DNA of 64,000 bases from Holophagales bacterium UBA2201 (lineage in GTDB: Bacteria; Acidobacteriota; Thermoanaerobaculia; UBA2201), in assembly GCA_002327305.1 (NCBI GenBank), contig DCUZ01000016.1, forward strand, positions 7,873 to 71,872, read 5' to 3'. Positions 2,224 to 62,565 of the stretch are shown one piece after another. Made by a program: the position numbers and the translations under genes. Position 1 is the stretch's first letter; each line of letters starts with the position of its first letter. Under the pieces are notes generated by a model. It was not told the origin of the DNA, did not search any database, and saw only the letters and a program-made list of their open reading frames with translations.

Positions 2224-2348
2224 TCTTATCCTCTTTTCACATAAAGAAAATACTGCTTCTGATATAAGACAAGCCGATTCTGTGCCCCTAACATTCTATG
2301 TAGCAGCAGACAAGATATTATTTAAGTGACAATTTTAAGACACTACGC

Positions 2349-5225: not shown

Positions 5226-5619
5226 GCCGCCACCCTACCAGCGGGCGACCCACCGGGTCGCCCCTACCAATACCCGCCGGCCACCTGCCTGGAGGGATTG
5301 CATCCCTCGCCTGCTTTCCTGCCGGCAAACCATCTGAACGCCATTACTGCTGATCGATACGGCCACTAATACCCCCTAAACCCTTTGAATGGCCCGAAAC
5401 ACTGGATAGGACTATACTCCCTTGAATGGGGCAGGGTCAAGGGCATGGCCGGGCTCCCGCGGCCGCTCAGTCCGGAAGGAATCGTTCAGATCTTTGTCTC
5501 CCGGGGCGTTGCCCCAAGCAGACGGTAAACCGGGCCTTGGGCCATCGAATAGTCAACGGCGGACAACGACCTGATTCCTTCAATGATATTGCAAAGGCAT
5601 GCGCTTTTACCAAGCGTGG

Positions 5620-6423
5620 CTAAGCGGCATGCGAAAGCCATGACACGATAAGAGATACGAGATGATCAGCGGCTTGCAGGCGGGCAGGCCATATGGAGAT
5701 CGCCCCAAAGATAGCCGCCAGGGCAAGCGCGACAGCGTTGGCACGGAAGACAGGATCTATAAACGTACCCGGGGCGCCGGAACCGGAAGCAAGACTCGCG
5801 ACCGCCCATTCTTCCCAAAATACTGTAATAAGAAGGCTGATACCGAGCGCAATCCAGATATAAAGGACCTTGAGGAGCCAGTAGAGGACCAACTGATTGG
5901 ATCCCGCCGCGCCTTGGCCGAGCCAGAACACGAAAGCACTCGCGACGAGCAGGATCGTCATGATTGCCGCGAGCGCCGCCGTCGGGCATGCCCGAATCCG
6001 GCTGTTGACGGCGACAAGCCGGAGCCGTTTGGCCGGAAGCAGGGAAAGGCCCCATATCACCGGAATGAAAATCAGCCAAAGAACGGGGACGCCTCCGAGG
6101 GCGACCGCCACAACGATTCCAACCACTGTGGAAAGGACATTCGCCAAAAACATGTAGATGACGGCCAGCCATCGCTTGAGGCCGCGCTGCAACACAGCGA
6201 ACAGCAATGCCTTGATGAGGACGATGACGCAAAGCACCTGGAGCGATGGGACAAGCCAGGACGGACCGGCAACCACCTTCATGAGTGGAAATATCGGTTC
6301 GCAGCCCATCAGGGCGCCGGAGGGGCACAGGGCGAGCAAGAAAGCAATGCTGGCCACGAGCAATGATCGTTTCGAGAGGGTCATGCGGCGCCTCCTGTGG
6401 ATGTCTTCATTTTGTGCATTCAT
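5620..6423 (-). CDS. hypothetical polytopic membrane protein
   Basis: 267 aa with multiple hydrophobic helices and no recognisable catalytic motif. The start may be the internal M of MTLSKRS. Confidence 0.45.
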   Translation of the reverse strand: MNAQNEDIHRRRRMTLSKRSLLVASIAFLLALCPSGALMGCEPIFPLMKVVAGPSWLVPSLQVLCVIVLIKALLFAVLQRGLKRWLAVIYMFLANVLSTVVGIVVAVALGGVPVLWLIFIPVIWGLSLLPAKRLRLVAVNSRIRACPTAALAAIMTILLVASAFVFWLGQGAAGSNQLVLYWLLKVLYIWIALGISLLITVFWEEWAVASLASGSGAPGTFIDPVFRANAVALALAAIFGAISIWPARLQAADHLVSLIVSWLSHAA

Positions 6424-6607
6424 GGCTTCTCCTGCAACTGCACTGAATTCCAGGCGGCCGTGATCCAGACGACGCGGCCCTTCCCCGCTGGGTGTGCCGA
6501 AAGCCCTGGAAATGGACAGAAATCGGCAAAGCCTCCAAAATCATATTCCCATGCTTCCGCATCATCCGCATCCTTCCTTCGCTAATTCCCGCCTTTCCCG
6601 CGGACTT

Positions 6608-6907
6608 TTACCCTTTCACCCCGCGGCCCCGCCAATAGCGTGGCCGACGGTGAAGATGGGCTACCGCTACAATAACGAGGCTCTGTTCATCCCGGCCATA
6701 AATGAGGCCATACGGGAAGCGGGCGAGAAAACAGCGTCGCAATTCAGGACCGATTTCGCTTCCGGAAGATGGGTAGACACTGATTCTTCGGACCGCCCGG
6801 TCCAACTCATCAAGGAATTCCATCCCCAATCCCGGCACCTGTACCTCGTACCATGCTACGGCATCGTCCAGTTCGCGTCGGGCGCGAATGGTGAACCTTA
6901 CGGTCAT
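6608..6907 (-). CDS. ParE/RelE-family type II toxin
   Basis: 99 aa with the ParE-like N-terminus MTVRFTIRARRELDDAVAWY, overlapping the upstream antitoxin by 4 nt. Confidence 0.75.
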   Translation of the reverse strand: MTVRFTIRARRELDDAVAWYEVQVPGLGMEFLDELDRAVRRISVYPSSGSEIGPELRRCFLARFPYGLIYGRDEQSLVIVAVAHLHRRPRYWRGRGVKG

Positions 6908-7126
6908 GACCTGCTGTACTTTTCCATGACGGCCCGATAGGACACGGTTTTAAGGCGGCCCGCCTTGTAGGCCTTCCACCGGCGATGCGCTTCCTGTGCC
7001 CAGGCACGGTCAATTTCCGGATCCGGCTGGTCAAGATCGGCCAGGATTGAATCCACCAGTTGAAGTTTTTCCATATCCGACAGGGATCGGATTTGTATGG
7101 CGAGTTTTTCCGCTTTGGCGCTCATA
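6904..7126 (-). CDS. type II antitoxin (putative addiction module component, ParD-like/CHP02574-like)
   Basis: MSAKAEKLAIQIRSLSDMEKLQLVDSILADLDQPDPEIDRAWAQEAHRRWKAYKAGRL. The start is placed at the internal ATG preceded by GGAGGTG; the longer track ORF is an N-terminal over-extension. Confidence 0.7.
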
Positions 7127-47866: not shown

Positions 47867-48233
47867 GCGGTCCTCCCGGGGATCATGGTTCCCCGATGAT
47901 ACCACGCCTGGAGGCGTGGATCTATTCGGTCGACCGCTCCGGCCCATCGGCGAGGAGATGCTTGTGGCCGCCTTCCCCGGTCTCCCGGGGGCTCTGCGCA
48001 AGCAGTGCCCCCGGGAGACCACTGGTCCCGACGCCGCTCCTCGTCTCGGGGGAGGGGGTATGGGGCTGGTTGCCCCCCGGGCCGCTCCGATCTTCACCGG
48101 GGCGGCTCCCAGGCCAGCCCCCACTGCGCTAATTATATTTCGCAAAGAAACGACCCTCCGTATCAATGCTATGCGAACTTATTGACCTGTCTTTTCACAA
48201 TGAAAATCTATTTTTCCACAGCTATATTGGCAT

Positions 48234-48911
48234 TTATAAATATTGCGGGAAGAATAAGCCTTCAGTGTCACCACTATGTGAACTAATCTCTTCTTCTTTT
48301 AGAAGACGGACATCACCGTATCTGCCAACAAATACCGTCTCTTTGAATATGGTTGGCATATATGCTTTAGGAATTGGCTTTATTACATATCGCGTTATTT
48401 CATAACCGTAACCAACGGGAACTACCCTGGCCTCTTGGAAGCGAAGCCACTTCCATTTGCTGGTGGGGAGGCACACACCAATGCAGCCGCTATGCCCTGT
48501 TCGAGGATAGATCTCTAATTTCTGCTCTTCAAACAAATGTACTGTATTAAAAGAAGAAAAGAATCTGAAATAAACTAAAGCGTCAGATGCACTCCATAAA
48601 AATATGCAGCCATGAAGGTCATTGGGACCTTTCACTTCATTTTCCAGCCCGTTCTTTTTAAGTACTACTTTTTCAGTGTACTCGGGGGGAATGCTGACGC
48701 CGGGAACGAACTCCACGTGACAGTCTTCTTTGAGCATCGTCAGTGTTATGCATGTGCTATCAGAAGTATAATCCAGACATCGATAGCTGGAGCCATTAAT
48801 GGAATGCCACCCTGCTCTGGAGGCGCAGCCGATTGTTGTAACGGCGACAAGCAGAAGTAATGATTGACTCAGCACGAGTTTATAGCTCTCTATGAGGTTC
48901 TTTGGCATCAT
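48234..48911 (-). CDS. putative lipoprotein, paralog 1 (possible orphan Rhs immunity protein)
   Basis: Signal peptide + lipobox-like TIGC. ~40% identical over ~150 aa to the 49068-49763 product. In a low-GC region. Confidence 0.45.
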   Translation of the reverse strand: MMPKNLIESYKLVLSQSLLLLVAVTTIGCASRAGWHSINGSSYRCLDYTSDSTCITLTMLKEDCHVEFVPGVSIPPEYTEKVVLKKNGLENEVKGPNDLHGCIFLWSASDALVYFRFFSSFNTVHLFEEQKLEIYPRTGHSGCIGVCLPTSKWKWLRFQEARVVPVGYGYEITRYVIKPIPKAYMPTIFKETVFVGRYGDVRLLKEEEISSHSGDTEGLFFPQYL

Positions 48912-49067
48912 GATTATTCCCCTGCCTTTCTACAATGGGATTCTTTCTTCTCTTGCTGAACTTTAACGGTTGCGTTGATGTATTTTATACATTTTAGACT
49001 ACCTATTCATATTTGCTATTTTGGGTTGCACCGCACCGGCACTCTTGATCATCGTGCCTGCCGGTCC

Positions 49068-49763
49068 CTAGATGAATCCAGCAAAGCCCACCCTTTCCGT
49101 ATATTTCGGGTCATCAGTAATCTTTTCTTCGCTTATTAAATCTACTCCACCATCCTTGCGTACGAGCACTATTTCTTTATATATCGTAGGCAAATATGCT
49201 TTTGGGAACGGTTTTATAATGAACCTTGTTATCTCAAAGCCATCATTCTTTGGAGTCACGACTGGATCGTGCAAATGAAGATTGTTCCAGCTCCTATTCG
49301 TCGTGCACACTAAGATGCATCCTCGATGGCCTTTAGGTGCAAATATTTCCTTCTTCTCGTCTTCAAAAAGGTGCGCGGTGTTTTCACTTGAAAAGAAGCG
49401 CAAATACTCTATTGCTTCCTCTGGCGTTTCAATATTTGCGCATCCTTTGAGATCGTTTGGGCCATTAACTCTTCTCATTTCATCTCCACGAATCAAAACA
49501 ACCCTTTCGCTTATCTGAGGGGGGATTGTATCTCCCTCAATAAATTGCAGCGAACACTCAGCATAAATCATTGGGAGATTAATGCACCTGCAATAAGGAG
49601 GGTATTTTCCCTTAAGATACCTGTCGCCGAGAAAACAGTTCAGTTTTTCATGATTAGCGCACGCCAATTCAAGCGATGCGAAGGACAGGAATATCAGAGC
49701 AAGAAAATACCTACGTGCGCGAGGGCAAATCATATTATTTACTTGCATCCGCGAAGTAATCAT
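49068..49763 (-). CDS. putative lipoprotein, paralog 2 (possible orphan Rhs immunity protein)
   Basis: Signal peptide + LELAC. Shared blocks RFFSS.NT.HLFE..K.EI..GH.GCI.VC and EITR.IIKP.PKAY.PTI.KE.V.V. Confidence 0.45.
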   Translation of the reverse strand: MITSRMQVNNMICPRARRYFLALIFLSFASLELACANHEKLNCFLGDRYLKGKYPPYCRCINLPMIYAECSLQFIEGDTIPPQISERVVLIRGDEMRRVNGPNDLKGCANIETPEEAIEYLRFFSSENTAHLFEDEKKEIFAPKGHRGCILVCTTNRSWNNLHLHDPVVTPKNDGFEITRFIIKPFPKAYLPTIYKEIVLVRKDGGVDLISEEKITDDPKYTERVGFAGFI

Positions 49764-49816
49764 ATATTATTCTCCTTCTATTTGTCAGGGCATTTTCCAC
49801 AAAAATCCTCTTTTGA

Positions 49817-50182
49817 TTATTTTTGACTCTCAAGATTCTTGTCCAAGAAATAATTGCAACTTCCCGAGCCAAATCTGGACCTAAGTCTGGCCTTCTCCAG
49901 ACAGGGAACCGAAACGCCATAGGCATAGCATTCAGTGCAGGGTGTGTCGCTTCCCTGCAACCCTGGGTTGCTATTGGGAGATCTGCCTTTGCACGCATTG
50001 GGCCTCTTCTGCGTGAACCATTCAATGTGCGCCACCTCATGTTTTTCAAAGCAATCCGGCGCACAATCCGGGCGCTCAAGCCATCTCCATTTGAATCCCC
50101 CGCAACCGTCGCACACTGTTATGGCGAAATCTGTTAAGACAGCGTGAGAATTGTTCTTTTCAAACACAGAATATTCAAGCAT
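49817..50182 (-). CDS. Cys-rich small hypothetical protein (possible orphan toxin module remnant)
   Basis: 121 aa with 11 Cys (VCDGCGG, CAPDC, CTECY), in the low-GC tract between lipoprotein genes. Confidence 0.3.
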   Translation of the reverse strand: MLEYSVFEKNNSHAVLTDFAITVCDGCGGFKWRWLERPDCAPDCFEKHEVAHIEWFTQKRPNACKGRSPNSNPGLQGSDTPCTECYAYGVSVPCLEKARLRSRFGSGSCNYFLDKNLESQK

Positions 50183-50256
50183 GCCTTCCAGGTCAATAAA
50201 ACCCGACGGATTGTTATGAGCATAATATTATACTGCGGCAAAGGTGTGAAATACTT

Positions 50257-50787
50257 TTATTTCCATCCTCCTCCTCGGAACATAATGCTGACTGCATGCA
50301 ACTTAAAAAATTCTTCTCCCGCCAATATTGTGATCTTTAGCGTATAACTATCCTTGCTTGCCGGGATAAAATAGGTGCCGGGATCATCGTTGAGTGACTC
50401 TGATTTCCTGCGATAGCCGAATGCATCTGCACAGTCAACGCTACAAGTCCAGACCCAATTCGCTAAATCGTCTTTTTGGGTGAAAATATTATTGCCATCC
50501 GATGTATTCAATGCAACTTCTACCCTGGCGGCTGTTCGTTTGGCTTCGGATACTGCACCAGCAGCATCAAGCGAAGCAACATGAAAGCCCATAACGAAGC
50601 GCGTTGAAGGCAGCCGCCCAATCATGTATTCCTTTGTCGGAACGCTATTAGGGCCTAGATCCAAAATATATTGATCAATTGCTTCTGCTGCTCCCCGATC
50701 AGCAAAAGTTCCATCTCCAATATAGCGCCATTCTTTGTTGCAAGAAACACTCAAAAACATGCAGAACAATAATAACTTTGCCTTCAT
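50257..50787 (-). CDS. putative lipoprotein, candidate immunity protein for the adjacent Rhs toxin
   Basis: Signal peptide + lipobox LSVSC, 13 nt downstream of the rhs stop on the same strand. Confidence 0.4.
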   Translation of the reverse strand: MKAKLLLFCMFLSVSCNKEWRYIGDGTFADRGAAEAIDQYILDLGPNSVPTKEYMIGRLPSTRFVMGFHVASLDAAGAVSEAKRTAARVEVALNTSDGNNIFTQKDDLANWVWTCSVDCADAFGYRRKSESLNDDPGTYFIPASKDSYTLKITILAGEEFFKLHAVSIMFRGGGWK

Positions 50788-50799
50788 GGTTTCTTCCTC

Positions 50800-53700
50800 T
50801 CATTTCTTGGGTGGCTTTGTGGGCGGAGCGGGTTGAGGCGGATTGTCGTCAATTCCAGGCGCACTACCCAAGCCTTCCGGCACACCCCCTTTGCAGCAAG
50901 CCCGTGCTACGGTTCCGGCATAAGTATTGCTATTAGGGCCGAGTAGACGATACTCTCCGCGTGGATAGTTGTCGGAAGCATCCTTGATACATCGGTCCTG
51001 ATCGCCTGCTGAACAATCTCGTGGGCAATCTTTGCATATTCCTCCTTGGTCACGTGGATCATCAGTGCGCGGTATGCCTATGGTTGATGAATTTTCTCCT
51101 CTTTTTTGAGGGTATAATCCATAAGTCGTGTTGCTATTAGCGACAATGTAACAATGACGCTTTCTAAAAATATCTCCTGCAACTGTGCTAGCAACCCGGC
51201 GACAGCACACTTTGGCACTTAGCCCCAGGAAATCAAAATTAGAAATCGGATTCAGGATAGAATATGCAAACGGATTTAGTCCACCCTCGATCAAGCCAGC
51301 CGGATCCGAAGTACTGTACCTCCCCAGCCTGCTCCCGTACCACCTATGGCCGTTGTAGTAGAGCGAGGCATTGTCCACGGCCGCATCGGCAACCTGCCCC
51401 GGGAACCTCAAGAGGTTCGTGACCGTGCCGCTTTCCCCATATAGCCTCCCAAAGGGGTAATAGACCCCTTCCCACACCGACGCTTGAGAGGAGTCTGTCA
51501 TGGCGAGCGGCGTCATGAGGTGGTCGGTGTGGTAATAGTAGACCGCATCCGTCGGGACACCCTTGAAGATTTTGTAGGCGTAGTTGTTGGAGTTGCCGAG
51601 CACATTGTCGTCGTAGATCTTGGGGGTGAGTTCCTGGATCATCGAGGGGCTGGAGAACGTGAAGTCGTTGGTGGAGCGGTAAACGCGGAAGTTCTCGTTC
51701 CCGCCGTAGAGGGTCCAATCCAGATGGACATACCCGCCGGTCTTGTCGGCCTTAAGGTAACTCCCAATGGTCATCCAAGGGGGCTGGTTCACGACCTGCG
51801 CCACGGGCTCCGTCCTGTTGTAAATGTAATCGGTCCAGAAACCGCTTGAAAGGTCCTTCTCGGCGATCAATTGACCTTCGAGGCCGTAGAAGAAAAGGAC
51901 GGTCTTCGAGGGATACACCGCCTCGCGCCTTCGCATCTGATAATCATAGAAGTAGCTGGCCGTGGCCCCCGAGTCCACGTTCACCATGTGCCCATGACTG
52001 CCGTAGCCGTAGACGTGGAGGGAATCCGCCGTGATGCTCCCGTCGGCGTTGAAGGTGAAGCTCTCCGGCTCATGGCCCGTGGTGCTGGTCAGCCTGTTCG
52101 TGCCGGATTGGTAGTTATACGAGGTAGAATCAGCGTTCTCGGTTTTCGTCAGGCGGTTTCCATTGCGATCATACGAGTAGCCCATGGAGCCCCACAGCCC
52201 CGAGGCCGAGGTCAGGCGGTAAAGGTCGTCATACCCGTAACTCCGGGAGTACGACCCGCTGATGGCGGTGATGTTGAACTCGTCGTCGTGGGTGTAGGTC
52301 GTCGAGATGGGGCCATTGGCGTTGGAGGAGGGCCGGTATTTGAGGTCGAAAGCCCTTGCGAGGGAGAGCCCATTGCCGAAGGTCCCGGCCGATTGCGGCC
52401 CGAAAGGATAGTAGCCCATCCCGGACAGAAGCGGCTGGGAGGACCCGTTCACCACGGCGGAGATTGCCGAAACCTTGCCGATCACGGTGTTGACGGTATA
52501 CGCCACCTGGCGGCCGTCGGGGTGGGTGAGGGTGGTCTGGTTGCCGTTCTTGTCGAAGGTATACGCTGTGGTGTAGGGCGTGGCTGAAATCGTGATTGTC
52601 TCGTTCTTCTCCCGTCCCGTCTTGAAGTAGTTGAAGGTGGTGGTCCCCGCTGAGTCCGCGACCATCGTCAGCCTGCCGATCCCGTAGGAGGTCGCGAGTT
52701 CATCATATGTCAAGGTCACGTTGTAGGAGCCGATGGGATAAACAATCGTTGAAAGACGGTTCAGCGCGTCGTAGGTCCGCGTCGTGGTGGCCGATAGGGC
52801 GTCCGTCTCTGTGAGCGTGTTTCCGGCCGGGTCGTAGGTGCGGTCGGTGGTCCCCGAGTCGGGCGAAACCGTGCGACGTAGGTCGCCGAAATCATCGAAT
52901 GTATACGTGGTGGCGTGCCCCTCTGGGTCGGTGACCTGCGTCAGATTGCCGTGCGAATCATAGCCGAATTGGGTGGTGACGGGAATGGCCCCATCTAAAA
53001 CGGTTGTGGACTGGAGGCGGTTCAGGGCATTGTAGACGTGGGTGGTGTAGTGGTCGCCACTCGTGTAGGGGTGGTTGGCGTCGTCGAGATATTGCAGATT
53101 TCCGGCGGGATCATAGAAATATTCCGTGTAGGTGGCGTCGGGGTTGATGGTCTTCCAAAGGCGGTTGTGATCGTCAAAGGCGTACTCGGTGATCTTGTCC
53201 TGCGTGTAACTCCCGCCCTGCCACTGGTAATATTCCTCCTTGGTTTTATTGCCGTGCTTGTCCCAGGTGTAGACGGACTTGTCCCCGTGGGCGCCCATGG
53301 AGGCTTCCAACTCGTACTCGGTGAGCCGCCCGGCGGCATCGAAGGTGTAGTTCACGACGTTCCCCTCGGGCTGGATGAGGTAGTCGAGGCGTCCATTGTC
53401 GTCAAAGAAGGTTTGCGTCGTAATGGTCTCCGTTTCGATCCCGTGGGGGAGAATGCTCTCCACCGTCACCCGCCCCAGGGCGTCGGTCGTCCGCTGGGTC
53501 TGGACTCCGTTGGGGTCGGTGGTCAGGAGGGCGGTTCCGAAAACGTCGTAATTCTCGAACTGCCGGATGTGGCCGCGGGCGTTAGTGATGCGGTACAGCC
53601 TGCCCCGGAGATTCAGGTTTGAATCGCCGTCCGGGTGATACTGCCAGGTCGTGAGGTCGGCAACATCCGTGCGGGGGCCGTCATGTTGGATGGGTCGGTG

Positions 53701-55701
53701 GGCCGAATCATAGGTGGTGGTTTCGGTGTGGACGGTCGGGGTGACATCGGTATCATAAAGCCACCCCGTGGTCGTTGTGGTGAAGATGGTATGGCTGGGG
53801 GTGGAGAGGTCGTATTCGATGGTCTTGGTCTCTCCGGTCTTGACGACGGAGGGATACTGGATTTTCGTGATCATTCCCGGAAGCTCGGTGTTTTCATAGA
53901 AATAGTTCGTGGTCTTTTCCAGGGCCGTCCCGAAGGCTTCGGTCAAGGTCGTCAGGCGTCCGGTGGTATCGTACTGCTTCTTCGTGATGTTGCTGTTGGC
54001 GTCGGTGATCTGCGTTGTTCGGTTGTGCTCATCGTATAGGAACGATGCATCCTGGAATCCGCACCCGCCCCCGCAGCTTCCTTGGATTTGGGTCACCAGC
54101 CCGCGCCCGCCCTGATATCTCCAGTCGTAGGTGGTGATGATATTAGTCGTGTCGTTCTGGTGTTCCGTTACAATGGTTGAGACATTGGAAGGGTAGGATA
54201 TTTGTAACCATTCCTGATTACCCTCTTTGTAGGATGATGTCGCCCGGCGGCTGGAGTCGTAGGTGTGGGCTTCGAGGATTTGTCCGGCCCGGTTCTTCGC
54301 CTGGAGGAGGTTCTTGGGGCTGGCGGAATCATAAACATATAGCCGGTCGGGATTGGCAGTGCCGTTGCCCGGAAAGAAGACCTGCGTCAGATAATTGTTC
54401 GTCCCGTCATAAAAGAACCGCCATGCCGTCGTGCCGTCCCAGAGGGTAATCTGATTGACGCGGTTGGAGGCATTGTAGGAGAGGGCGATGGTCCGGTTGA
54501 GAGGGTCCGTCACGCCCGTCAATCTTCCCCCCGTGTACGCGCCGGTGTAGCAGTTTCCGTAGAAATCGCATGACCGGTCCCACAAGCCTGAGCTTTTGGT
54601 GAAGCGCGTCGTGTTCCCGTTGAGGTCCGCGATTGTGAGCGTGCTCCCGTCGTCCATCATCGTGCCTTGCTGGTCATACGGCCAGTAGGCGGTGAAAGTG
54701 TTCGCGGAGGGGGCGTCTTCGAGGTAGTACCGTTTGCGCCCTTCGGCGTTGACGTGGCGGTAGATTCTTCGGGTGTCCGAAAGAGTGTTGGTGAGGGTGA
54801 GGCGTTGGTTGAAGGTGTGCGTCCAGCCGTACCCCATCCAGCCGCCCGTCGTCGCCAGCACCTTCTCCTGGTTGTTGTAGGCCCGCGTGAAGGTGAAGCC
54901 GGCGATGTCGTCGAGGGTGAAATCGCTCTCATCGTAGTGCATGTTGCCGGAGGATACGTTGATGGGCCCGCCCACGCATACACTGCCGCCGCCCTCATTG
55001 CAGCATTCCCAATCGGGGGAGGCCGTACAACCGCTCTCTAATGGTAGGGGGATCGGGACGCCCACAGAACCGCTGGTGAGGGACGAAGAGCAGCCTGAAG
55101 TCCCGGTGCACCGCTCCATGCGGGCGGAATAATTCAGCGTGGTGCCCGCGGCGGAGCACGCCACGCCGAACACGGGATACCACGTCCCCTGCTCGAAACG
55201 GGGCTCGCAGAAGATGTCGGCCACACGGGCGTTCGAGCAGTTCTTCGCCCCGGTGTAGTCCTGGATGACGCACATACCCCCCGCCGCGCACCCCCACGGG
55301 TTGGTCTGGCACCAGTGGCACGGCGCCTGGAAAGGGACCGTCGCGACGATAGTGAATCCCCCCGATTTGGGGACTACCGAAGCCGACAAATCAATGGAAT
55401 TGGAATATTGGGCGCTGGTACAGCCTGCGCAGGTGCCGGAACACATGCAACTGTAAGGGTAGCCGTAATCCTCAAGCTGTTTCTCACAAAGATGGCCCGG
55501 CACCGTGGCCGAGCCGTCATATCTACACTGAAGGAGTTCTGCTGCACCCGAGGGGCATTGGTAGCAGGCCGAGGTCGGATACCCGACCGTCTGGTCGCAG
55601 CCTTGGGCGCATCCGCTCGGCGGCGGGAAATCCACGGCCAAACCCACCGCCGGGCTGAGGACCGTACCAAAGGAAAAGAGCACCGATAGCACCGCCTTCA
55701 T
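50800..55701 (-). CDS. Rhs/YD-repeat polymorphic toxin (signal peptide, Cys-rich N-terminal region, RHS repeats, variable Cys-rich C-terminal domain)
   Basis: 1633 aa. Many YD repeats (YTYDALNRL, YFYDPAGNL, YGYDDLYRLTSA). The RHS core ends with the DPAGLIEGGLNPFAYS (DPxGL-like) motif, followed by a ~170-aa Cys-rich tail. Confidence 0.85.
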   Translation of the reverse strand: MKAVLSVLFSFGTVLSPAVGLAVDFPPPSGCAQGCDQTVGYPTSACYQCPSGAAELLQCRYDGSATVPGHLCEKQLEDYGYPYSCMCSGTCAGCTSAQYSNSIDLSASVVPKSGGFTIVATVPFQAPCHWCQTNPWGCAAGGMCVIQDYTGAKNCSNARVADIFCEPRFEQGTWYPVFGVACSAAGTTLNYSARMERCTGTSGCSSSLTSGSVGVPIPLPLESGCTASPDWECCNEGGGSVCVGGPINVSSGNMHYDESDFTLDDIAGFTFTRAYNNQEKVLATTGGWMGYGWTHTFNQRLTLTNTLSDTRRIYRHVNAEGRKRYYLEDAPSANTFTAYWPYDQQGTMMDDGSTLTIADLNGNTTRFTKSSGLWDRSCDFYGNCYTGAYTGGRLTGVTDPLNRTIALSYNASNRVNQITLWDGTTAWRFFYDGTNNYLTQVFFPGNGTANPDRLYVYDSASPKNLLQAKNRAGQILEAHTYDSSRRATSSYKEGNQEWLQISYPSNVSTIVTEHQNDTTNIITTYDWRYQGGRGLVTQIQGSCGGGCGFQDASFLYDEHNRTTQITDANSNITKKQYDTTGRLTTLTEAFGTALEKTTNYFYENTELPGMITKIQYPSVVKTGETKTIEYDLSTPSHTIFTTTTTGWLYDTDVTPTVHTETTTYDSAHRPIQHDGPRTDVADLTTWQYHPDGDSNLNLRGRLYRITNARGHIRQFENYDVFGTALLTTDPNGVQTQRTTDALGRVTVESILPHGIETETITTQTFFDDNGRLDYLIQPEGNVVNYTFDAAGRLTEYELEASMGAHGDKSVYTWDKHGNKTKEEYYQWQGGSYTQDKITEYAFDDHNRLWKTINPDATYTEYFYDPAGNLQYLDDANHPYTSGDHYTTHVYNALNRLQSTTVLDGAIPVTTQFGYDSHGNLTQVTDPEGHATTYTFDDFGDLRRTVSPDSGTTDRTYDPAGNTLTETDALSATTTRTYDALNRLSTIVYPIGSYNVTLTYDELATSYGIGRLTMVADSAGTTTFNYFKTGREKNETITISATPYTTAYTFDKNGNQTTLTHPDGRQVAYTVNTVIGKVSAISAVVNGSSQPLLSGMGYYPFGPQSAGTFGNGLSLARAFDLKYRPSSNANGPISTTYTHDDEFNITAISGSYSRSYGYDDLYRLTSASGLWGSMGYSYDRNGNRLTKTENADSTSYNYQSGTNRLTSTTGHEPESFTFNADGSITADSLHVYGYGSHGHMVNVDSGATASYFYDYQMRRREAVYPSKTVLFFYGLEGQLIAEKDLSSGFWTDYIYNRTEPVAQVVNQPPWMTIGSYLKADKTGGYVHLDWTLYGGNENFRVYRSTNDFTFSSPSMIQELTPKIYDDNVLGNSNNYAYKIFKGVPTDAVYYYHTDHLMTPLAMTDSSQASVWEGVYYPFGRLYGESGTVTNLLRFPGQVADAAVDNASLYYNGHRWYGSRLGRYSTSDPAGLIEGGLNPFAYSILNPISNFDFLGLSAKVCCRRVASTVAGDIFRKRHCYIVANSNTTYGLYPQKRGENSSTIGIPRTDDPRDQGGICKDCPRDCSAGDQDRCIKDASDNYPRGEYRLLGPNSNTYAGTVARACCKGGVPEGLGSAPGIDDNPPQPAPPTKPPKK

Positions 55702-56164
55702 AACTTCCCTCCTTTTCAGTCTATCATAGATAGACGCTGCGCCGGGGCTGAGCCCTTGAGGATCACCCCGGACGATTCACGCCCATGGGCTTCTGCCCTT
55801 GGGCCAAAGTCGGTTCCATCAAGTAGGTACAAAAACAGCGGTTCTTGCTTACCTTGACTTTGAGATGGGCTCTAAGCAAGGAGTCGCCGAAAGAGGGGGG
55901 GGGTGACTAAGCGGCTTGGGATTTCCATTCCATCATCTGCTAAAAGAGCGCTTGAAAAGGACCCTTTAGACATGCCTTTGGCGTCCCTCAGGGGTTCCTG
56001 GGCCTCGGCAAGGGGTGTCGCATGCCAACACACTACACCCTGATAGCTATATTTGCCAAGTATGGCCTATTGAAGATTCTATATTTACAGCATTATTGCT
56101 TTGGTAGCCAAGCAAATTTTCCGTTTATTAATTAATCGCCATAGCATATAAAAGCTCCTGAGCC

Positions 56165-56554
56165 TTGTACTACAGACTAACGAAGCGGTTTGGAGCGCGA
56201 ATCCGCCAATTGCGGCTGCAGAAGAAGCTGACCCAGGAGCGGCTAGCCGATAGGGCGGGACTGCATGTGACCTTTGTAAGCCTGGTGGAGCGGGGGCGAC
56301 ACAACGCGAACCTCAAGACGATCAACAAGCTTTCCAAGGGCCTGAAAGTGCCGGTATGGGAAATTTTCATTGGCATGGAGAGGGCGAGAGACCTTCCAAA
56401 GTATGAGCAGTTGAGGCTGAAGGGGTTTATCAGGAAAGGACCAGGCAAGCCTCCACTGGTGGATGAGAAGGGGCGAAGAATCCGGCCCATAAGAAGCCGG
56501 GCACGCAGGAAAACAGCCGCCCAGGCCACCGGGAAGGCCAAACGAAAACCCTGA
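56165..56554 (+). CDS. XRE-family HTH transcriptional regulator
   Basis: Cro/C1-type HTH LTQERLADRAGLHVTFVSLVERGRHNANLKTINKL plus a basic C-terminal tail. Confidence 0.7.
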   Translation: MYYRLTKRFGARIRQLRLQKKLTQERLADRAGLHVTFVSLVERGRHNANLKTINKLSKGLKVPVWEIFIGMERARDLPKYEQLRLKGFIRKGPGKPPLVDEKGRRIRPIRSRARRKTAAQATGKAKRKP

Positions 56555-56674: not shown

Positions 56675-57649
56675 CTACGCTTCTCCCACCCCCGTCCGGA
56701 CCATCCATCCCACCGCCCCCGCCAGCGCCGCCAGTTGGAGTACGAGCAAGAGCGGGTTGAAGGAGACGTGGGGCAGGAGGTGGAAGGTGCGGTAGGCCAT
56801 CAGGCCGGCCAGGATCACGCCGTCGAAGAAGAGGACCGCCCCGGCGATCCGCCGCAGGGGGTTGGCCAGGAGGGAAAAGAACGGGACGGCGAAAAGGAGG
56901 ACCACCGCGCCGTAGAACAGGGCGTTGCCCCAGGGGAGGTGGAACCGGGCCTGGAGGTAGTGCACCTCCTCGGGGATGTTGGCGTACCAGATGGTGAGGT
57001 ACTGGGCGAAGAAGAGGCCACCCCAGAAGAGCGCGAACCCGAAGGTGAGGGTGGCGGTGTCCTTGAGCGTGGCGGGGGGGCAGGCGCCGCGTCGGCTCAG
57101 GAAGAAACAGATGATGCCCGCCAGCGCCAGGCCGGCATAGAGGGCCTCGACCATGTAGAGGGCGGGGAACATGGTGGAGATCCAGGGATAGTCGAAGCTC
57201 ATCACCTGGTCCACCGCCATCACCGAGTGGGAGACCACGAAACTGAAAATGTAGGCCACGGCCCAGGCCCGGCGCCGTTCCGAACCCTTCCGCATGGCGC
57301 GGATGAACATCATGGCGATCACAAATGAGACGATGAACAGGATGTGGGAACGGAAGGCGACCCCCGCTGAATTCAGCCAGGCCGTGGGCTGGTGACTCCA
57401 AGCGTAGAGGGCGATGTCCGGATCGGCCAGGCAGGGGATGAAGAACAGGGGCCACATCCCCATCAACGGTTTGCGCAGGGGGGCGATCCATTGCGCGTTG
57501 GAGAGTTCGGCGGCCGCCACGAGGAGGATGCTCCCCTGCGCCAGCGCCGCGGCGAGGAGAAAGGTGAGCAGTTTAGAGGCGGAGGCGTCCAGATAATAGA
57601 ATAGCCCATAGACCAGAAGGGCCAGGATCCACGGTCCGTTCTTCTTCAT
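56675..57649 (-). CDS. polytopic membrane protein, possibly an accessory subunit of the adjacent ACIII-like complex
   Basis: 324 aa with ~8 TM helices and no CxxCH. It overlaps the ActD-like gene. Confidence 0.4.
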   Translation of the reverse strand: MKKNGPWILALLVYGLFYYLDASASKLLTFLLAAALAQGSILLVAAAELSNAQWIAPLRKPLMGMWPLFFIPCLADPDIALYAWSHQPTAWLNSAGVAFRSHILFIVSFVIAMMFIRAMRKGSERRRAWAVAYIFSFVVSHSVMAVDQVMSFDYPWISTMFPALYMVEALYAGLALAGIICFFLSRRGACPPATLKDTATLTFGFALFWGGLFFAQYLTIWYANIPEEVHYLQARFHLPWGNALFYGAVVLLFAVPFFSLLANPLRRIAGAVLFFDGVILAGLMAYRTFHLLPHVSFNPLLLVLQLAALAGAVGWMVRTGVGEA

Positions 57650-58077
57650 GCCTGCTCCTTCACGAAGATGGCGTAGGCGTTCCCGGTCTCCTCGGGGGCG
57701 AGGATGCTCCGGATGTCCGGGAACCGGTTCAAATGGAAGAACCCCAGGATGGAGGCGACGGCCCCCAGGAGGATGGTCAATTCGAAGGCGATGATCATGA
57801 AGGGCGGGAGGGAGATAAGGGGCTTGCCGCTGGTGATCAGCGGCCAGGCCAGGACGGCGTAAGTGGTGAGGCCGAACCCCATCGCCGCCCCCAGGACGGC
57901 CCCCGTGCCGGTGAACCAGCCCAGGGGCGATGGCGGCGTGCGGAGAATGTGAAACGCCTCGTGGACCGGGACGGGGGTCCGCACCTCGATCGAGGATGTC
58001 GGAACTCCGTCGTCCACGAGTTCCTTCAGCTTGGCCAGGAATTCGGTTTTATCGTCGCAGAGATATTTCTGGGTCAT
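57646..58077 (-). CDS. DUF3341/ActD-like membrane subunit of quinol:cytochrome c oxidoreductase
   Basis: Soluble N-terminal domain plus two C-terminal TM helices with PLISLPPFMIIAFELTILLGA, typical of ActD. Confidence 0.7.
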   Translation of the reverse strand: MTQKYLCDDKTEFLAKLKELVDDGVPTSSIEVRTPVPVHEAFHILRTPPSPLGWFTGTGAVLGAAMGFGLTTYAVLAWPLITSGKPLISLPPFMIIAFELTILLGAVASILGFFHLNRFPDIRSILAPEETGNAYAIFVKEQA

Positions 58078-58094
58078 GATCCCTCCTCGGCGGC

Positions 58095-58320
58095 AAAGGA
58101 AGAAGTAAGAATTAAGAAGTATGAAAAAATGAAACGAAGGCTTAATCCTACTCTGTACGTCTCTTCCTTCATAATTCTTACTTCTGCCTTCTGCCTTCTC
58201 ATTCGTGCTCCTCGACTGGAAAGGATGAATTAAAAATTAAGAAGTATGAATAAACAAGACAGAACGCCGCCTCCTTCTTAATTCTTACTTCTTCCTTCTG
58301 CCTTTTCATTGCTGCTCCTC
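58095..58320. repeat. tandem ~110-bp duplication of the actC 3' end plus AT-rich palindromic motif (TTCATAMTTCTTAATT)
   Basis: ...gagcacgaatgagaaggcagaaggcagaagtaagaattatgaag... and ...gagcagcaatgaaaaggcagaaggaagaagtaagaattaagaag... are direct repeats. The motif gaattaaaaattaagaagtatgaataa also matches 351-376 (24/26, opposite strand). Confidence 0.6.
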
Positions 58321-59610
58321 CTTGATCTCCGTGATCGCGAGGACGGGCAGGGCCTTGACGAAGAGGAGGAAGATGGTGAAGAAGAGGCCGAACGAGCCCA
58401 CGGTGATCCCCACCGCGATCCACGAGAAGGCCGGCTTGCCCCACGCGTAGGGCTCGAAGTCGTGCGCCAGAGAGGTGACGATGATGATGAAGCGCTCCAG
58501 CCACATCCCCACATTGACGAAGAGGGAGAGGACGAAGAGGTAGGCGATGCTGCGCCGCAGTTTCTTCACGAACAGGGACAGCGGCAGGAGGCAGTTGCAG
58601 AAGACCATCAGATAGTAGGCCCACTTGAAGTCGCCGAAGAGGCGGTAGGAGAAGTGGGCGGTCTCGAAGACGTTGCCGCTGTACCACGCCAGGGCGATCT
58701 CCATCACATAGGCGTAGGCCACGATCAGCGAGGTGAAGAGGAGGGTCTTGGCCAGGGCCTCGAAGTGGTCGATGGTGATGTACCGTTCCAGCCGCAGGAT
58801 CTTCCGCATCGGGATGACCAGCGTCATCACCATGGCGCAGCCGGAGAAGATGGCCCCGGCGACGAAATAGGGGGCGAAAATGGTGGTGTGCCAGCCGGGG
58901 ATGACGCTCATGGCGAAGTCCCACGAGACGACGGAGTGGACGCTGATGACGAGGGGGGTGGCGAAGGAGGCCAGGAAGATGTAGAGTTTTTCCCAATGCC
59001 TCCACTGCGTGTGCGTCCCCGTCCACCCCAGCGAGAGGATGCGGTAGGCCCAGTGACGGATGCCGGTGGTGCGGCGGCGGGCAATGGCCAGGTCGGGCAC
59101 CATGCCGACGTAGAAGAAGAGGAAGGAAACGGTGAAGTAGGTGGAGACGGCGAAGACGTCCCAGATCAGGGGCGAGCGGAAGTTGACCCACAGGAGGCGC
59201 TGGTTGGGGTAGGGCAATAACCAGTAGAAGAGCCAGACGCGCCCCAGGTGGATGAGGGGGAAGAGGCCGGCCGTCATCACCGCGATGACGGTCATCGCCT
59301 CGGCGGAGCGGTTGAAGGCCTTGCGGAACCGGGCGCGGAAGAGGAAAAGGACGGCGGAAATGAGGGTCCCCGAGTGGGCGATGCCGACCCAGAAGACGAA
59401 GTCGGTGATGTACATGTACCAACCCACCGGGTTGTTCTTCCCCGACAGGTGCATCCCGCCCCAGATCTGGAGCCCCCAGCAGGCCATCCCCACGGCGAAC
59501 ATCAGGGCGGTGAAGGCCAGGGCGGCCCAGTAGACCTTTCGCGGGCTCTGCATCCCCCCAAGGACGTCCACCTCCACCCGGTCGTGGAAGGAGAGGGGCT
59601 TATCGCTCAT
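58306..59610 (-). CDS. NrfD/PsrC-family quinol-interacting membrane subunit (ActC-like)
   Basis: 434 aa with 10 TM helices and the NrfD-family pattern. The start overlaps the actB stop (ATGA). Confidence 0.85.
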   Translation of the reverse strand: MSDKPLSFHDRVEVDVLGGMQSPRKVYWAALAFTALMFAVGMACWGLQIWGGMHLSGKNNPVGWYMYITDFVFWVGIAHSGTLISAVLFLFRARFRKAFNRSAEAMTVIAVMTAGLFPLIHLGRVWLFYWLLPYPNQRLLWVNFRSPLIWDVFAVSTYFTVSFLFFYVGMVPDLAIARRRTTGIRHWAYRILSLGWTGTHTQWRHWEKLYIFLASFATPLVISVHSVVSWDFAMSVIPGWHTTIFAPYFVAGAIFSGCAMVMTLVIPMRKILRLERYITIDHFEALAKTLLFTSLIVAYAYVMEIALAWYSGNVFETAHFSYRLFGDFKWAYYLMVFCNCLLPLSLFVKKLRRSIAYLFVLSLFVNVGMWLERFIIIVTSLAHDFEPYAWGKPAFSWIAVGITVGSFGLFFTIFLLFVKALPVLAITEIKEEQQ

Positions 59611-62453
59611 GGTTCCCCTCCACCAGTTTCGAGTTTCGAGTTTCGAGTTTCGAGTTTGCGTGGTCGGAACTCTGAGCTCCGAACTCCGAACTCCGAACTC
59701 CGAACTGTTTTCAAGTAGTACACCGCCGGCCTCGTCCCGAGCGATTCGAGGACCCGGTAGGCCCGGGGGGAGGCGGCCTGCTTCGAAACCGCCGATGCGG
59801 GGTCGAGGAGATTGCCGAAGGTGATGGCGCCGGTTGGGCAGGTCTGGGCGCAGGCGGTGGTGAGGTCGCCGTCGCGCACCTTTTGCCCTTTATCCTTCGC
59901 CTGGTCCTTGGCGCCGACGATGCGCTGGATGCAGAAGGTGCACTTCTCCATCACCCCCGCGGGACGGCGGGAGAGGTCTGGGTTGGTCATCTTCGGCAGG
60001 GGTTCCGGCAGGGGTTCGTCCAGCCAGTTGAACCGGCGCACCTTGTAGGGGCAGTTGTTGGCGCAGTAGCGGGTGCCGACGCAGCGGTTGTATACCTGCG
60101 CGTTGAGCCCCTCGGGATTGTGGTAGGTGGCCAGGACCGGGCACACCGCCTCGCAGGGGGCGTGGTCGCAGTGCTGGCAGAGCATGGGGAGGAATTCAAG
60201 GCGGCCGTCGCCGCCGAAATAGGGCTCCAGCCGGATCCACGCCATCTCGCGCCCCTTGAGGTGCTCGTCGAGGCCGGTGAGGCGGATGTTGTTCTCCAGG
60301 TAGCAGGCCGCCACGCAGGAGGAACAGCCGGTGCACTTGTCCAGGTCGATCGCCATCCCCCAGCGGTAGTCCTTGTGTTCGTGCTCGGGGTAGAGGGTGG
60401 CCTGGGTATGATTCGGCTTGTCGATTGGATCGCCCCGCCATTCCGCGCGCATGCCATCTTGCGCGCAAAATATTATCAATTCCCTTTTTTCCTGAAGGAT
60501 GCCCCGGCCCGTCGCGGTCATGCCGCCCGACAGGATGGGAAGGCGGACCTTCTCCCCCTTGGCCCTGATGGATTTCAGCGGGAAGATGGCGTCGGGTTCG
60601 GCTGCGGCAAACCTTGACAGGGGGAGATTCTCTCCCATGAGGAAGGGGCGCTGGATCATAAAGACCCCTTCGGCGAGGCCCATCTGGACCTTGACGGGAA
60701 GATCGAGCGAAACGCCGTCAATGTCCGCTGTGACGACATCCTTGTCCGCCACTCCCAGTTTGCGGGCATCCTCCGTGGAGACGGAGAGCCACCGGCCGTA
60801 GGTGATGGTGGAAAGGGGGTCGGGGATCTCGTGGAGGAGCGGCAGGGCCGCCGACCGGCCGTCGCCGGTCCGCACGGAGGGGGTGATCACGGCGACGGGG
60901 GTCTTGGCAGTAGGAGCAAACAAGATCTTGGGGGGAGATTCAAGCCTAATCTCCAGAGATTCCTCAACCTGTTGTTCAAAGCAAGCAAAGCCTTTATTCA
61001 ATGCAGTTGGAGAGATCCTCCATCTATTGCTGATCTCTTTCTGCATATCGTACTGCTCAACTATGAAGTCAAGCAATACATCACCTAAGGCGCGGCTGTC
61101 GTGAATTGGTGCAATTGCAGGGGCGTGAACGTTCGAAAGGCCTGTCCTGGGCAATTGATCTCCCCATGATTCCAGCGGAAGCGATAACGGCAGGACAATC
61201 GTGCAGGCTCGTATCGTCGGCGTGAGAGTGTCGCCAATTCCCACCACAAGAGAGGCGCGGCCGGTGGCATTGCGAAGTTCAGGGATATGGGCGTGGGGGT
61301 CGGCCCCGGCGGCGATGAAAATCCCGCCGCTACTGGCTTTGCGAGCCTCTGCCCAGGCCAGGAGTTCGGAATTCCCGCCGCCGTTGGGCCGCTTTATGAA
61401 GTGGCCGAAGTCCACCGTGCAATCGGTCATCCCCAGGGCAAACTGGTTGAGCGCCGTCATCATCGCTGCCGCCTCGCCTCCCGGCCCCGCCGTGCAGACG
61501 CCGCCGGCGATGAGGAGGGGTGCCTGCGCGGAGCCCAGCGCGCCGGCCAGCCGGTCGAGGGAAGCGGCGTCCATCCCCGTCTCGAAAAGCGCCTGCTCGC
61601 GGCTGACGAACGGCACGGCCGCCAGGACCGTCGGGGGCAGAGGTTTCCTCGCGGGCAGGGCCCGGATTAGGTGAGCGAGGAGGAACGCCTCGCTGCCGGG
61701 GCGGACCGTGATACGAAGGTCGGCGTTGGACCCGGTGAGGGAGAAGTGGGGCTCCAAGTGGAGCCACTCGAAGCCGCCACGCGTGCGGTTCTCCGCGACC
61801 TTCCGGGCGTACTCCACCGGGCTAACGAAGGTCTCCAGGATATCGGCCCCCAGAGTGACCAACAGGTCGGCCTTCTCCATGGCGTAGGAAGGAACGACGG
61901 GGCGACCGAAGAGTTTGTCATTGGCCTTGGCGATGGCAGAAGGAAAAAGAGGATCAAAGATGATATGTTCGATTCCGAACCTATCACAGAATGCCACCAT
62001 CAGCGTAGCTAACGCTCCGGTCGCTGTGTCGGTCACCAACAGGTGCGGCCCCTTCTCCTTGAGCGCGTTGCCGATGGTTTCGAGGGCGGTGTCCCAGGTG
62101 ACGGGCTGGAAGACCCCATCCCTCTGTTGGACGAGGGGTTCCTTGATCCGCTCGGGATTGTAGAGCCGCGAGAGCGAGGCCTGGCCGCGGATGCACAGCG
62201 CCCCGCGGTTGATCGGATGCTCGGGATTCCCCTCCAGCTTCACCGGCCACCCCTCGCGCACCCGGGCCAGGACGCCGCACCCGGCGGGGCATTCGGTGCA
62301 GATGGTCGGCACCCACTTTGCCTCGCCCGGCAGGACGCCGTCGTCCGGCGGTACGAGGGCCGGGATCAGTTTTTCCGGCGGCTTGCCCTGGCAGGCCACC
62401 GCCGCTGTCCCTCCGGCCAACCCCAATATGCGCAAGAACTGTCGTCTATTCAT
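59607..62453 (-). CDS. molybdopterin-oxidoreductase-like + 4Fe-4S ferredoxin fusion subunit (ActB-like), Tat signal
   Basis: Tat motif NRRQFLRILGLAGG, then a MopB-type domain (CTECPAGCG). The C-terminal 4Fe-4S region has CTGCSSCVAAC, CQHCDHAPC, CPYKV, CTFCIQRI. The start is trimmed to MNRRQFL. The final ~30 codons are encoded by heptamer repeats. Confidence 0.8.
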   Translation of the reverse strand: MNRRQFLRILGLAGGTAAVACQGKPPEKLIPALVPPDDGVLPGEAKWVPTICTECPAGCGVLARVREGWPVKLEGNPEHPINRGALCIRGQASLSRLYNPERIKEPLVQQRDGVFQPVTWDTALETIGNALKEKGPHLLVTDTATGALATLMVAFCDRFGIEHIIFDPLFPSAIAKANDKLFGRPVVPSYAMEKADLLVTLGADILETFVSPVEYARKVAENRTRGGFEWLHLEPHFSLTGSNADLRITVRPGSEAFLLAHLIRALPARKPLPPTVLAAVPFVSREQALFETGMDAASLDRLAGALGSAQAPLLIAGGVCTAGPGGEAAAMMTALNQFALGMTDCTVDFGHFIKRPNGGGNSELLAWAEARKASSGGIFIAAGADPHAHIPELRNATGRASLVVGIGDTLTPTIRACTIVLPLSLPLESWGDQLPRTGLSNVHAPAIAPIHDSRALGDVLLDFIVEQYDMQKEISNRWRISPTALNKGFACFEQQVEESLEIRLESPPKILFAPTAKTPVAVITPSVRTGDGRSAALPLLHEIPDPLSTITYGRWLSVSTEDARKLGVADKDVVTADIDGVSLDLPVKVQMGLAEGVFMIQRPFLMGENLPLSRFAAAEPDAIFPLKSIRAKGEKVRLPILSGGMTATGRGILQEKRELIIFCAQDGMRAEWRGDPIDKPNHTQATLYPEHEHKDYRWGMAIDLDKCTGCSSCVAACYLENNIRLTGLDEHLKGREMAWIRLEPYFGGDGRLEFLPMLCQHCDHAPCEAVCPVLATYHNPEGLNAQVYNRCVGTRYCANNCPYKVRRFNWLDEPLPEPLPKMTNPDLSRRPAGVMEKCTFCIQRIVGAKDQAKDKGQKVRDGDLTTACAQTCPTGAITFGNLLDPASAVSKQAASPRAYRVLESLGTRPAVYYLKTVRSSEFGVRSSEFRPRKLETRNSKLETGGGEP
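59626..59707. repeat. heptanucleotide tandem repeats (GTTTCGA)x4 then (CCGAACT)x5, inside the 3' end of actB
   Basis: cagtttcgagtttcgagtttcgagtttcgagtttgcg...ctccgaactccgaactccgaactccgaactg. Same heptamer as in the 28086-28470 array. Confidence 0.8.
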
Positions 62454-62565
62454 GCCGATTCTCCATGCGCGACCTTCCAATTGCTGAATGGTGCCGCAGG
62501 CTTCAGCCTGCGCGTTTTTAAAATTCCAAGGGCGCAGCATGCTGCGCCCCTACGAATGCTTTTCA

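Follow-up and report, generated by a model that had tools for sequence, protein, structure and literature searches.

A probable Rhs polymorphic-toxin island with two uncatalogued candidate toxin-immunity pairs in Holophagales bacterium UBA2201

Rhs/YD loci with arrays of orphan rhs-CT (C-terminal tip)/immunity modules are well described in E. coli, Salmonella, Dickeya, Serratia and bee-gut symbionts (e.g. PMC10539506, PMC8125069), and WapA of Bacillus and Streptococcus exemplifies Sec-exported Rhs-like toxins (PMC12704120). We analysed a locus of this kind in a stretch of 64,000 nucleotides (nt) from Holophagales bacterium UBA2201 (assembly GCA_002327305.1, contig DCUZ01000016.1, positions 7,873 to 71,872), hereafter called the window, in whose coordinates all positions are given. 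The locus starts with an rhs gene whose protein ends in a tip that we call CT1, followed by the gene of a lipoprotein, I1. Very probably, the locus is an Rhs polymorphic-toxin island that was acquired horizontally and comprises an Rhs toxin, its cognate immunity gene and fossil orphan modules. What we say below on enzymatic activity and on action in the periplasm has about an even chance of being right. An earlier interpretation made from the letters alone (the sequence-only reading) had named five open reading frames (ORFs) here and predicted displaced orphan modules. Every part of this interpretation that we could test held up. All five ORFs are in place on the minus strand, and so are the modules: after I1 come an orphan tip, CT2, preceded by a stub of Rhs core and followed by its partner I2a, and then a stump of roughly 12 codons of another CT2, followed by I2b.

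The architecture of the locus is textbook, and it leaves the understanding of Rhs systems unchanged. As in the described orphan arrays, there is a YD shell, the core ends in DPxGL-type motifs, unrelated tips sit on near-identical cores and an immunity gene lies directly downstream. Behind it come tips that have lost their 5' part but keep a core-end stub, each with its immunity gene, and the GC content is below that of the host. The differences lie in the details. The Rhs protein has an apparent Sec signal and a Cys-rich N-terminus, Pfam detects no PAAR or VgrG domain in it, and there are no genes of a type VI secretion system (T6SS) among the ORFs scanned in the window, although the genome may have a T6SS elsewhere. 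The stub is only about 15 codons long and has no DNA homology to the live gene. The members of the two immunity families are exported proteins or lipoproteins, and both toxin families and both immunity families are uncatalogued. The locus shares with WapA the signal-peptide-dependent export, the Rhs repeats, the polymorphic tip and the downstream immunity gene. However, WapA belongs to monoderms and has cell-wall-binding repeats, whereas the N-terminal domain is unrelated here and the host is probably diderm, given the lipoprotein partners and an ActB protein closest to those of diderm phyla. The value of the locus is thus that of a catalogue entry: two candidate toxin-immunity pairs without Pfam, NCBIfam or PDB match, each backed by conserved synteny, with about 30 loci for CT1/I1 and about 48 cluster representatives for CT2/I2. 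In addition, a Sec signal on an Rhs protein of a probable diderm raises the question of how the cocoon gets past the outer membrane and on to a target.

The rhs gene (50800..55701, minus strand) encodes 1633 amino acids (aa). Its identity as an Rhs/YD-repeat protein, proposed by the sequence-only reading, is confirmed by the Pfam families RHS_repeat (PF05593, E 1.3e-32, six stretches), DUF6531 (E 1e-15, aa 244-322) and RHS (E 8.6e-10, aa 1387-1420), and by the NCBIfam models TIGR01643 (E 3.7e-19) and TIGR03696, Rhs_assc_core (aa 1414-1494), which scores 54.7 bits where 32.5 is the cut-off. The N-terminus, MKAVLSVLFSFGTVLSPAVGLA/VDF, looks by inspection like a Sec-type signal peptide (aa 1-22; 55636-55701), which argues against loading of the protein by a T6SS. 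It is followed by the Cys-rich region (aa 23-243; 54973-55635), the DUF6531 plug (54736-54972) and the YD/RHS shell with the Rhs-associated core (aa 323-1494; 51220-54735). Cysteines are indeed concentrated at the two ends, as had been noticed before: there are 23 in aa 24-244 and nine in the last 139 aa, against four in the 1250-aa shell. The Cys-rich N-terminal region has no match in Pfam or the PDB, nor a family above threshold in NCBIfam or PHROGs, and could be a receptor-binding or export domain; P0041, another Rhs protein that bears a CT2 tip, likewise begins with a Cys-rich region. An insert of about 80 aa (aa 1305-1385; 51547-51789, minus strand; NQPPWMTIGSYLKADKTGGYVHLDWTLYGG..FRVYRS..NNYAYKIFKG) separates the RHS motif from the last YD repeats. 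It has no Pfam match and no NCBIfam or PHROGs family above threshold, looks like a small beta-sandwich (Fn3-like) domain and is kept in P0025 and in the sister Rhs protein of another locus, L019.

The end of the core (51220..51306) defines where the tip begins. It carries two motifs, DPAGL (aa 1466-1470; 51292-51306) and DFLGL (aa 1490-1494; 51220-51234), the latter with F in place of P, and the core-end profile matches the DPxGL...DPxGL ends of solved Rhs/Tc structures. In all homologs, DFLGL aligns with the DPxGL that stands just before the toxin. We therefore place CT1 at aa 1495-1633, because it is this second motif that directly precedes the conserved tip. The variable tail is hence about 139 aa long and not about 170 aa, as had been deduced by taking DPAGL as its boundary. 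By analogy, DFLGL is presumed to be the site of autoproteolytic release. The sister Rhs protein in L019 is 75% identical over aa 926-1500, its identity drops off after LRFPGQ, at about aa 1434, and its tip, a CT2, is unrelated. This is a polymorphic tip on a conserved core.

For CT1 (50803..51219), a search of 5.8 billion proteins retrieved ten relatives, at 55-58% identity and none with a Pfam domain, and a scan of metagenomes added 20 further loci. A DPxGL-type Rhs core end precedes CT1 in 10/10 homologs from the protein search and in each of the 17 metagenome loci whose sequence reaches far enough upstream. The motifs CCR, (R/K)HC(Y/W), GGxCxxC, YP, GPNSNT(Y/F)AGT and CC are invariant. No Pfam, NCBIfam or PHROGs family matches CT1 above threshold, and sequence and profile searches of the PDB, with CT1 and with a CT1-only profile, returned nothing beyond the Rhs core end. 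CT1 is a conserved, uncatalogued family met only at Rhs C-termini. We also considered as a relative the main tip of an Rhs protein in locus L007 (WYHAY...STNSNATA). It was rejected (hhalign probability 0.3%), and by Pfam it is not a DUF3750 protein either.

The structural model of CT1 suggests what the tip might do. The best fold scores were obtained with the PPPDE deSUMOylase 2wp7 (6.8), the T6SS effector TseH (6v98, 6.4) and PLAAT4 (6.4), followed by Aichivirus 2A (5.9), NDUEG7, a subunit of a respiratory supercomplex (8iuf, 5.5), and YiiX (5.4). A Foldseek search of the model against the PDB gave nothing significant (PLAAT4 came top, with E 0.23). In the model, His1516 (51154-51156) lies on a strand and Ser1591 (50929-50931), in the NSNTY segment, at the N-terminus of a long helix. 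We infer that they stand where a papain/NlpC-P60-like fold usually has its catalytic His and its nucleophile. Two sub-threshold Pfam hits fall precisely on the NSNTY segment: PPPDE, with 14.9 bits against a threshold of 29.2, and DUF3750 (PF12570), with 14.8 against 25. The latter is a papain-like family in which a conserved Ser replaces the Cys and whose activity is uncharted (PMC10318531); this Ser is the feature it has in common with CT1. Going by the model, CT1 would resemble PPPDE and DUF3750 in its working, but it cannot be placed in either, because the Pfam scores are about half of the thresholds and because, relative to PPPDE, it has Ser and not Cys. A search for the family and structure of the tip, as the sequence-only reading had recommended, has thus yielded a fold resemblance with moderate scores, but no catalogued toxin family above threshold.

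There are further differences between CT1 and these proteins. It lacks the His and Cys (NCNHF) dyad of PPPDE/Peptidase_C97 (PF05903; DeSI-2, 2wp7). In contrast to PPPDE, to the LRAT/PLAAT proteins with their 'H-box/NC-motif' and to DUF3750, it has nine Cys, among them invariant CC pairs and a CxxC insert, and none of these families is known as an Rhs toxin tip. TseH of Vibrio cholerae is toxic in the periplasm only and is neutralised by a periplasmic partner, TsiH (PMC4453574). However, TseH is free-standing T6SS cargo with a Cys nucleophile and has no sequence similarity to CT1, which is part of an Rhs protein and carries Ser at the N-terminus of the equivalent helix. Whether Ser-for-Cys papain-like folds are active enzymes is a question left open by PMC10318531, and CT1 lends itself naturally to testing it.

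The gene of I1 (50257..50787, minus strand) encodes a lipoprotein of 176 aa, with the lipobox LSVSC and a C-terminal GGWK. It had been assigned to the position of a cognate immunity gene, and comparison with other loci strengthens this assignment. In 16 of the 20 new loci, the gene of an I1 homolog begins 3-140 nt behind CT1, as it also does in L007, L008 and L010, i.e. in 19/23 other loci, which belong to unrelated genomes. These homologs are 23-78% identical to one of three I1 references and about 30% identical to the I1 of the window. The lipobox Cys and GGWK are invariant in the four aligned members; LSVSC is canonical, and the LAGC and FSGC of homologs fit the pattern [LVI][ASTVI][GAS]C. 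The CT1-I1 pair of L007 lies, as an orphan module, behind an Rhs gene whose own tip is a different one, and therefore the partner moves with the tip and not with the shell. In genomic terms, this marks CT1 and I1 as a candidate toxin with its cognate immunity protein. I1 belongs to no Pfam, NCBIfam or PHROG family. The L007 module (2883-7099) and L008 come from a Burkholderiales metagenome-assembled genome (MAG), where the host Rhs has its own 132-aa lipoprotein beside its different tip and the element carries an integrase, a primase and an ORF6N antirepressor-like gene. In another locus (L116, 1-2418), CT1 and the I1 homolog form one continuous open frame, which reflects either a missing stop or a fusion.

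The orphan tip behind I1 was initially seen as a Cys-rich ORF of 121 aa (49817-50182). It is homologous to live Rhs tips, but it is a fragment and not a complete gene. A tblastn search with the C-terminus of the L019 Rhs protein matched the window at 50233-49793 (42% identity over 156 aa, E 1e-33). The homology crosses both stops: the one 15 codons upstream of the ATG (V-stop-YYAHNNPSGFIDLEG-MLEY) and the one at the end of the ORF (ESQK-stop-SKEDFCGK, where homologs have a conserved ...DFCK-stop or ...EYCTK). Because it runs across both, we regard the ORF as a displaced tip fragment. The whole module (49793..50233, minus strand) consists of the degenerate core-end stub YYAHNNPSGFIDLEG (50183-50227), the ORF and about eight further homologous codons past the premature TAA. 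The stub, which reads stop-YYAHNNPSGFIDLEG-M where the intact sister Rhs of L019 has YSWNNPITFIDPDGF, is a DPxGL-type remnant of the kind that the sequence-only reading had advised looking for. The module has no shell, and the premature TAA costs it the last conserved Cys, in the C-terminal ...(D/E)(F/Y)C. Residues H48-E49-x-x-H52 and E84 are present. The stub has no blastn match to the 3' core of the live rhs gene, and in register only 15 of 48 nt are identical, so that re-activation by recombination is unlikely in this genome. Given this lack of DNA homology and the premature stop, we view the orphan toxin as a decayed fossil and not as a ready spare.

Elsewhere, CT2 is a live tip. An exhaustive HMMER search of 1.84 billion cluster representatives gave 49 hits with E < 1e-3, one of which is the ORF of the window itself; among them, P0047 is a repeat protein and was judged spurious. 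CT2 is C-terminal in all sequences inspected, including Rhs proteins of 1587-1717 aa, and it is the live tip of full-length Rhs proteins in L019 (of the same Rhs lineage as ours), L013/L015, L017/L018, P0025, P0041, P0050 and P0066. The domain has about 100 aa and about eight Cys, an invariant HExxH, the conserved motifs CDG(C/S/H)GG, PxxC(K/R)G and (T/S)ECxAY, and a Glu about 32 residues past the second His. It has no sequence or profile match in the PDB and no NCBIfam or PHROGs family above threshold, and these residues suggest a minimal gluzincin, i.e. a zincin-like metallopeptidase. Such tips of polymorphic toxins were reportedly described by Zhang et al. in 2012 and make up the Tox-MPTase families of Pfam. 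CT2 resembles them in the invariant HExxH, the later Glu and the position at the Rhs C-terminus; it differs by its small size, its many Cys, its N-terminal CDG(C/S/H)GG and the lack of any Pfam match at E up to 10. One protein of 153 aa (P0033) is a stand-alone CT2 that starts with a signal peptide and lacks any Rhs part, and therefore the domain is also used outside Rhs proteins. In L013, a 498-aa Rhs fragment (2029-3525) directly behind the CT2-I2 pair has a tip with another HExxH (MHEVTHQL) and a weak match to Aspzincin_M35 (E 0.0054); judging by these motifs, L013 is a tandem array of metallopeptidase-type tips.

I2a (231 aa; 49068..49763, minus strand) and I2b (225 aa; 48234..48911, minus strand) are 41% identical over 203 aa (E 6e-56), close to the 40% previously estimated. 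They had been grouped with I1 as three lipoproteins. The two are paralogous, but I1 is unrelated to I2a (BLASTP E 15), so that there are two families and not one. The lipoprotein calls are also uneven: in addition to the canonical I1, I2b has an acceptable TTIGC, which fits PROSITE-style rules as does the LLGAC of P0014 and P0015, while the LELAC of I2a and the LCLAC of L019 do not. Nevertheless, a Cys after the hydrophobic N-terminal segment is conserved in all full-length members of the I2 family, and we regard I2a as an exported protein and a probable lipoprotein. Neither I2a nor I2b matches a Pfam, NCBIfam or PHROGs family above threshold. The family search proposed for the three lipoproteins hence found no housekeeping family and, indeed, no known family at all.

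The genomic context of I2a makes it an immunity candidate for CT2. Its relatives are few, and all those examined sit directly behind an Rhs gene whose C-terminus is homologous to the 121-aa ORF. The homologs P0013, P0014 and P0015 directly follow CT2-bearing Rhs genes in L019, L013/L015 and L017/L018, i.e. in 3/3 distinct pairs. The L019 Rhs protein ends in ...YSWNNPITFIDPDGF...ICDGCGGFDW...CFKKHEEAHIGWF...YCTKAGQ-stop, and an I2a homolog with 64% identity starts 1 nt after this stop. I2a and I2b are both intact, and I2b is an orphan immunity candidate with no remaining toxin. Upstream of it, a stretch at 48914..49000 (minus strand) ends in ...EKKESHCRKAGE-stop, 2 nt before the I2b start codon. 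It resembles the end of the L019 CT2, TKKNEYCTKAGQ-stop, which stops 1 nt before the start of the L019 I2 gene, and it is a credible 3'-end stump of a second CT2. Behind the distant CT2-bearing Rhs protein P0041 (L121, 8990-9560), there is an uncalled ORF with a signal peptide and the motif ALEFLRLFT, where I2 has AIEYLRFFSS. It resembles I2 weakly (hhalign probability 39%, E 3e-4) and is followed by a 789-aa Rhs fragment.

Together, these observations suggest how the island may work. The signal peptide would direct the Rhs protein to export by Sec. CT1 would sit enclosed in the YD shell, and aspartyl autoproteolysis by the core after DFLGL(1494) would free the tip, as in the solved Rhs/Tc structures. 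CT1 would act as a His1516/Ser1591 hydrolase (an amidase or esterase) of a permuted papain/NlpC-P60 type, attacking an envelope substrate, peptidoglycan or a membrane lipid, from the periplasmic side of the competitor. I1, anchored in the periplasm, would block it in the producing cell and in kin cells. As for the orphan CT2, it could no longer be delivered, and I2a and I2b would be retained as protection from neighbours whose Rhs proteins still bear CT2-type tips. Action in the envelope, in the periplasm, would be consistent with partners that are exported proteins or lipoproteins and with the resemblance in fold to TseH. In its most specific form, the proposal makes CT1 a family of Ser-nucleophile, circularly permuted papain/NlpC-P60-like periplasmic toxins, stabilised by disulfides or metal and blocked by a lipoprotein, which an uncultured diderm lineage delivers in a Sec-exported Rhs cocoon independently of T6SS. 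We put this forward tentatively, as something possible but rather doubtful. If it were true, it would give DUF3750-type Ser-for-Cys papain-like proteins a first functional context and provide an example of Rhs delivery in diderms without T6SS.

Several points weigh against these interpretations. Papain-like proteins with Ser for Cys may be catalytically weak or inactive (PMC10318531), and the many Cys of CT1 could bind metal instead of forming disulfides. The zinc-peptidase identity of CT2 is read from its HExxH motif only. I1 is not detectable in 4 of the 23 CT1 loci. The second CT2 remnant has a tblastn E of only 0.77, and the case for it is made from position and motif. Finally, both the presence of a signal peptide and the diderm nature of the host are inferred.

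There are also alternative explanations. CT1 might act in the cytoplasm of the target or be a non-enzymatic binding domain, its papain likeness and Ser/His pair being incidental; the moderate fold scores, the lack of a PDB relative by profile search and the fact that Ser at the nucleophile position often marks inactive papain-like proteins all speak for this possibility, which we hold to be unlikely. Another explanation is that the orphan CT2 is a usable spare: either it is expressed by itself, starting at the internal ATG (50182), or recombination joins it to the live rhs gene again. Such re-fusion has been described for orphan rhs of Salmonella, and here the HExxH and the majority of conserved residues survive, the minus strand has a promoter-like match at 50250-50222 and one Joint Genome Institute (JGI) assembly calls the 121-aa ORF as a gene (P0011). 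But the six assemblies examined leave it uncalled, promoter-like matches are no commoner than in shuffled sequence (counts in the promoter and terminator scans were at or below those in shuffled sequence, and hence uninformative), and without a shell there is no route of delivery. Together with the in-frame stop ahead of the ATG, the truncated C-terminus and the lack of shared DNA between stub and live core, this makes a spare toxin quite improbable, and the decayed fossil remains our preferred interpretation of CT2.

The downstream exported proteins could also be accessory factors (for chaperoning, secretion or activation) or unrelated cargo of the island, and not immunity proteins. I1 and I2 belong to no known family, and Rhs effectors can have accessory proteins, e.g. 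EagR or DUF1795. However, the known Rhs accessory genes lie upstream and encode cytoplasmic proteins, while the partners seen here co-vary with the tip and not with the shell, I1 with CT1 (19/23) and I2 with CT2 (3/3 pairs). I1 also follows the shell-less orphan CT1 of L007, and I2b persists free of any toxin, as immunity genes would. We therefore judge the accessory role very unlikely. Least credible of all is an anti-eukaryotic Tc/ABC toxin of which the Rhs protein would be the BC-like component, and not an antibacterial weapon. The core end does match the TcC/YenC2 structures, but we saw no genes of TcA or TcB type in the window, and tip-specific exported partners and orphan immunity genes are a hallmark of inter-bacterial systems. 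A toxin-immunity island thus remains the interpretation that we favour.

The base composition of the island changes stepwise. GC is 0.63 at the 5' end of rhs, 0.586 in the shell, 0.539 at the core end and 0.505 in the toxin tip, and it falls to 0.42-0.47 in the four genes downstream, against 0.70 and 0.625 in the flanks. The AT-rich tract reported by the sequence-only reading is therefore real. The island is flanked by a SpoIIE-phosphatase/Ser-Thr kinase pair and an alternative-complex-III operon, and we found no tRNA genes or flanking direct repeats at it that would mark an integration site. The identical locus, including the exact 1633-aa Rhs protein, occurs in 17 metagenome contigs, some of them from oil-sands tailings samples (JGI 3300001580, 3300002220), and the Rhs protein was not found among GTDB species representatives. 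In one contig (L002, 12922-15961) with the same island, the sequence switches, about 104 codons into the SpoIIE gene, to genes for an NTP_transferase and a Toluene_X outer-membrane protein, which reflects either a strain rearrangement or a chimeric assembly.

Divergent from rhs, and separated from it by an AT-rich spacer of 463 nt (55702-56164, GC 0.497), lies a gene of the XRE family of helix-turn-helix (HTH) proteins (56165..56554, plus strand; Pfam HTH_3, E 2.6e-12; GC 0.567), which is possibly part of the island or its regulator. HTH_3 genes also adjoin the CT1-I1 modules in L007, L008 and L010-L012. Next comes the alternative complex III-like operon (56675-62540, minus strand), which encodes an ActB-like protein of 977 aa, NrfD/ActC (434 aa), ActD (143 aa) and a membrane protein of 324 aa. 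The closest matches of ActB among GTDB species representatives are only 45-49% identical and come from MAGs of several diderm phyla; by this measure, the host lineage appears poorly sampled. The window is rich in defence genes outside the Rhs island as well: at 562-4508 and 21694-24678, there are two type IIG restriction-modification genes of the Eco57I/MmeI-like kind (719 aa and 994 aa) and the gene of an AAA_15/AbiEii-like ATPase (553 aa).

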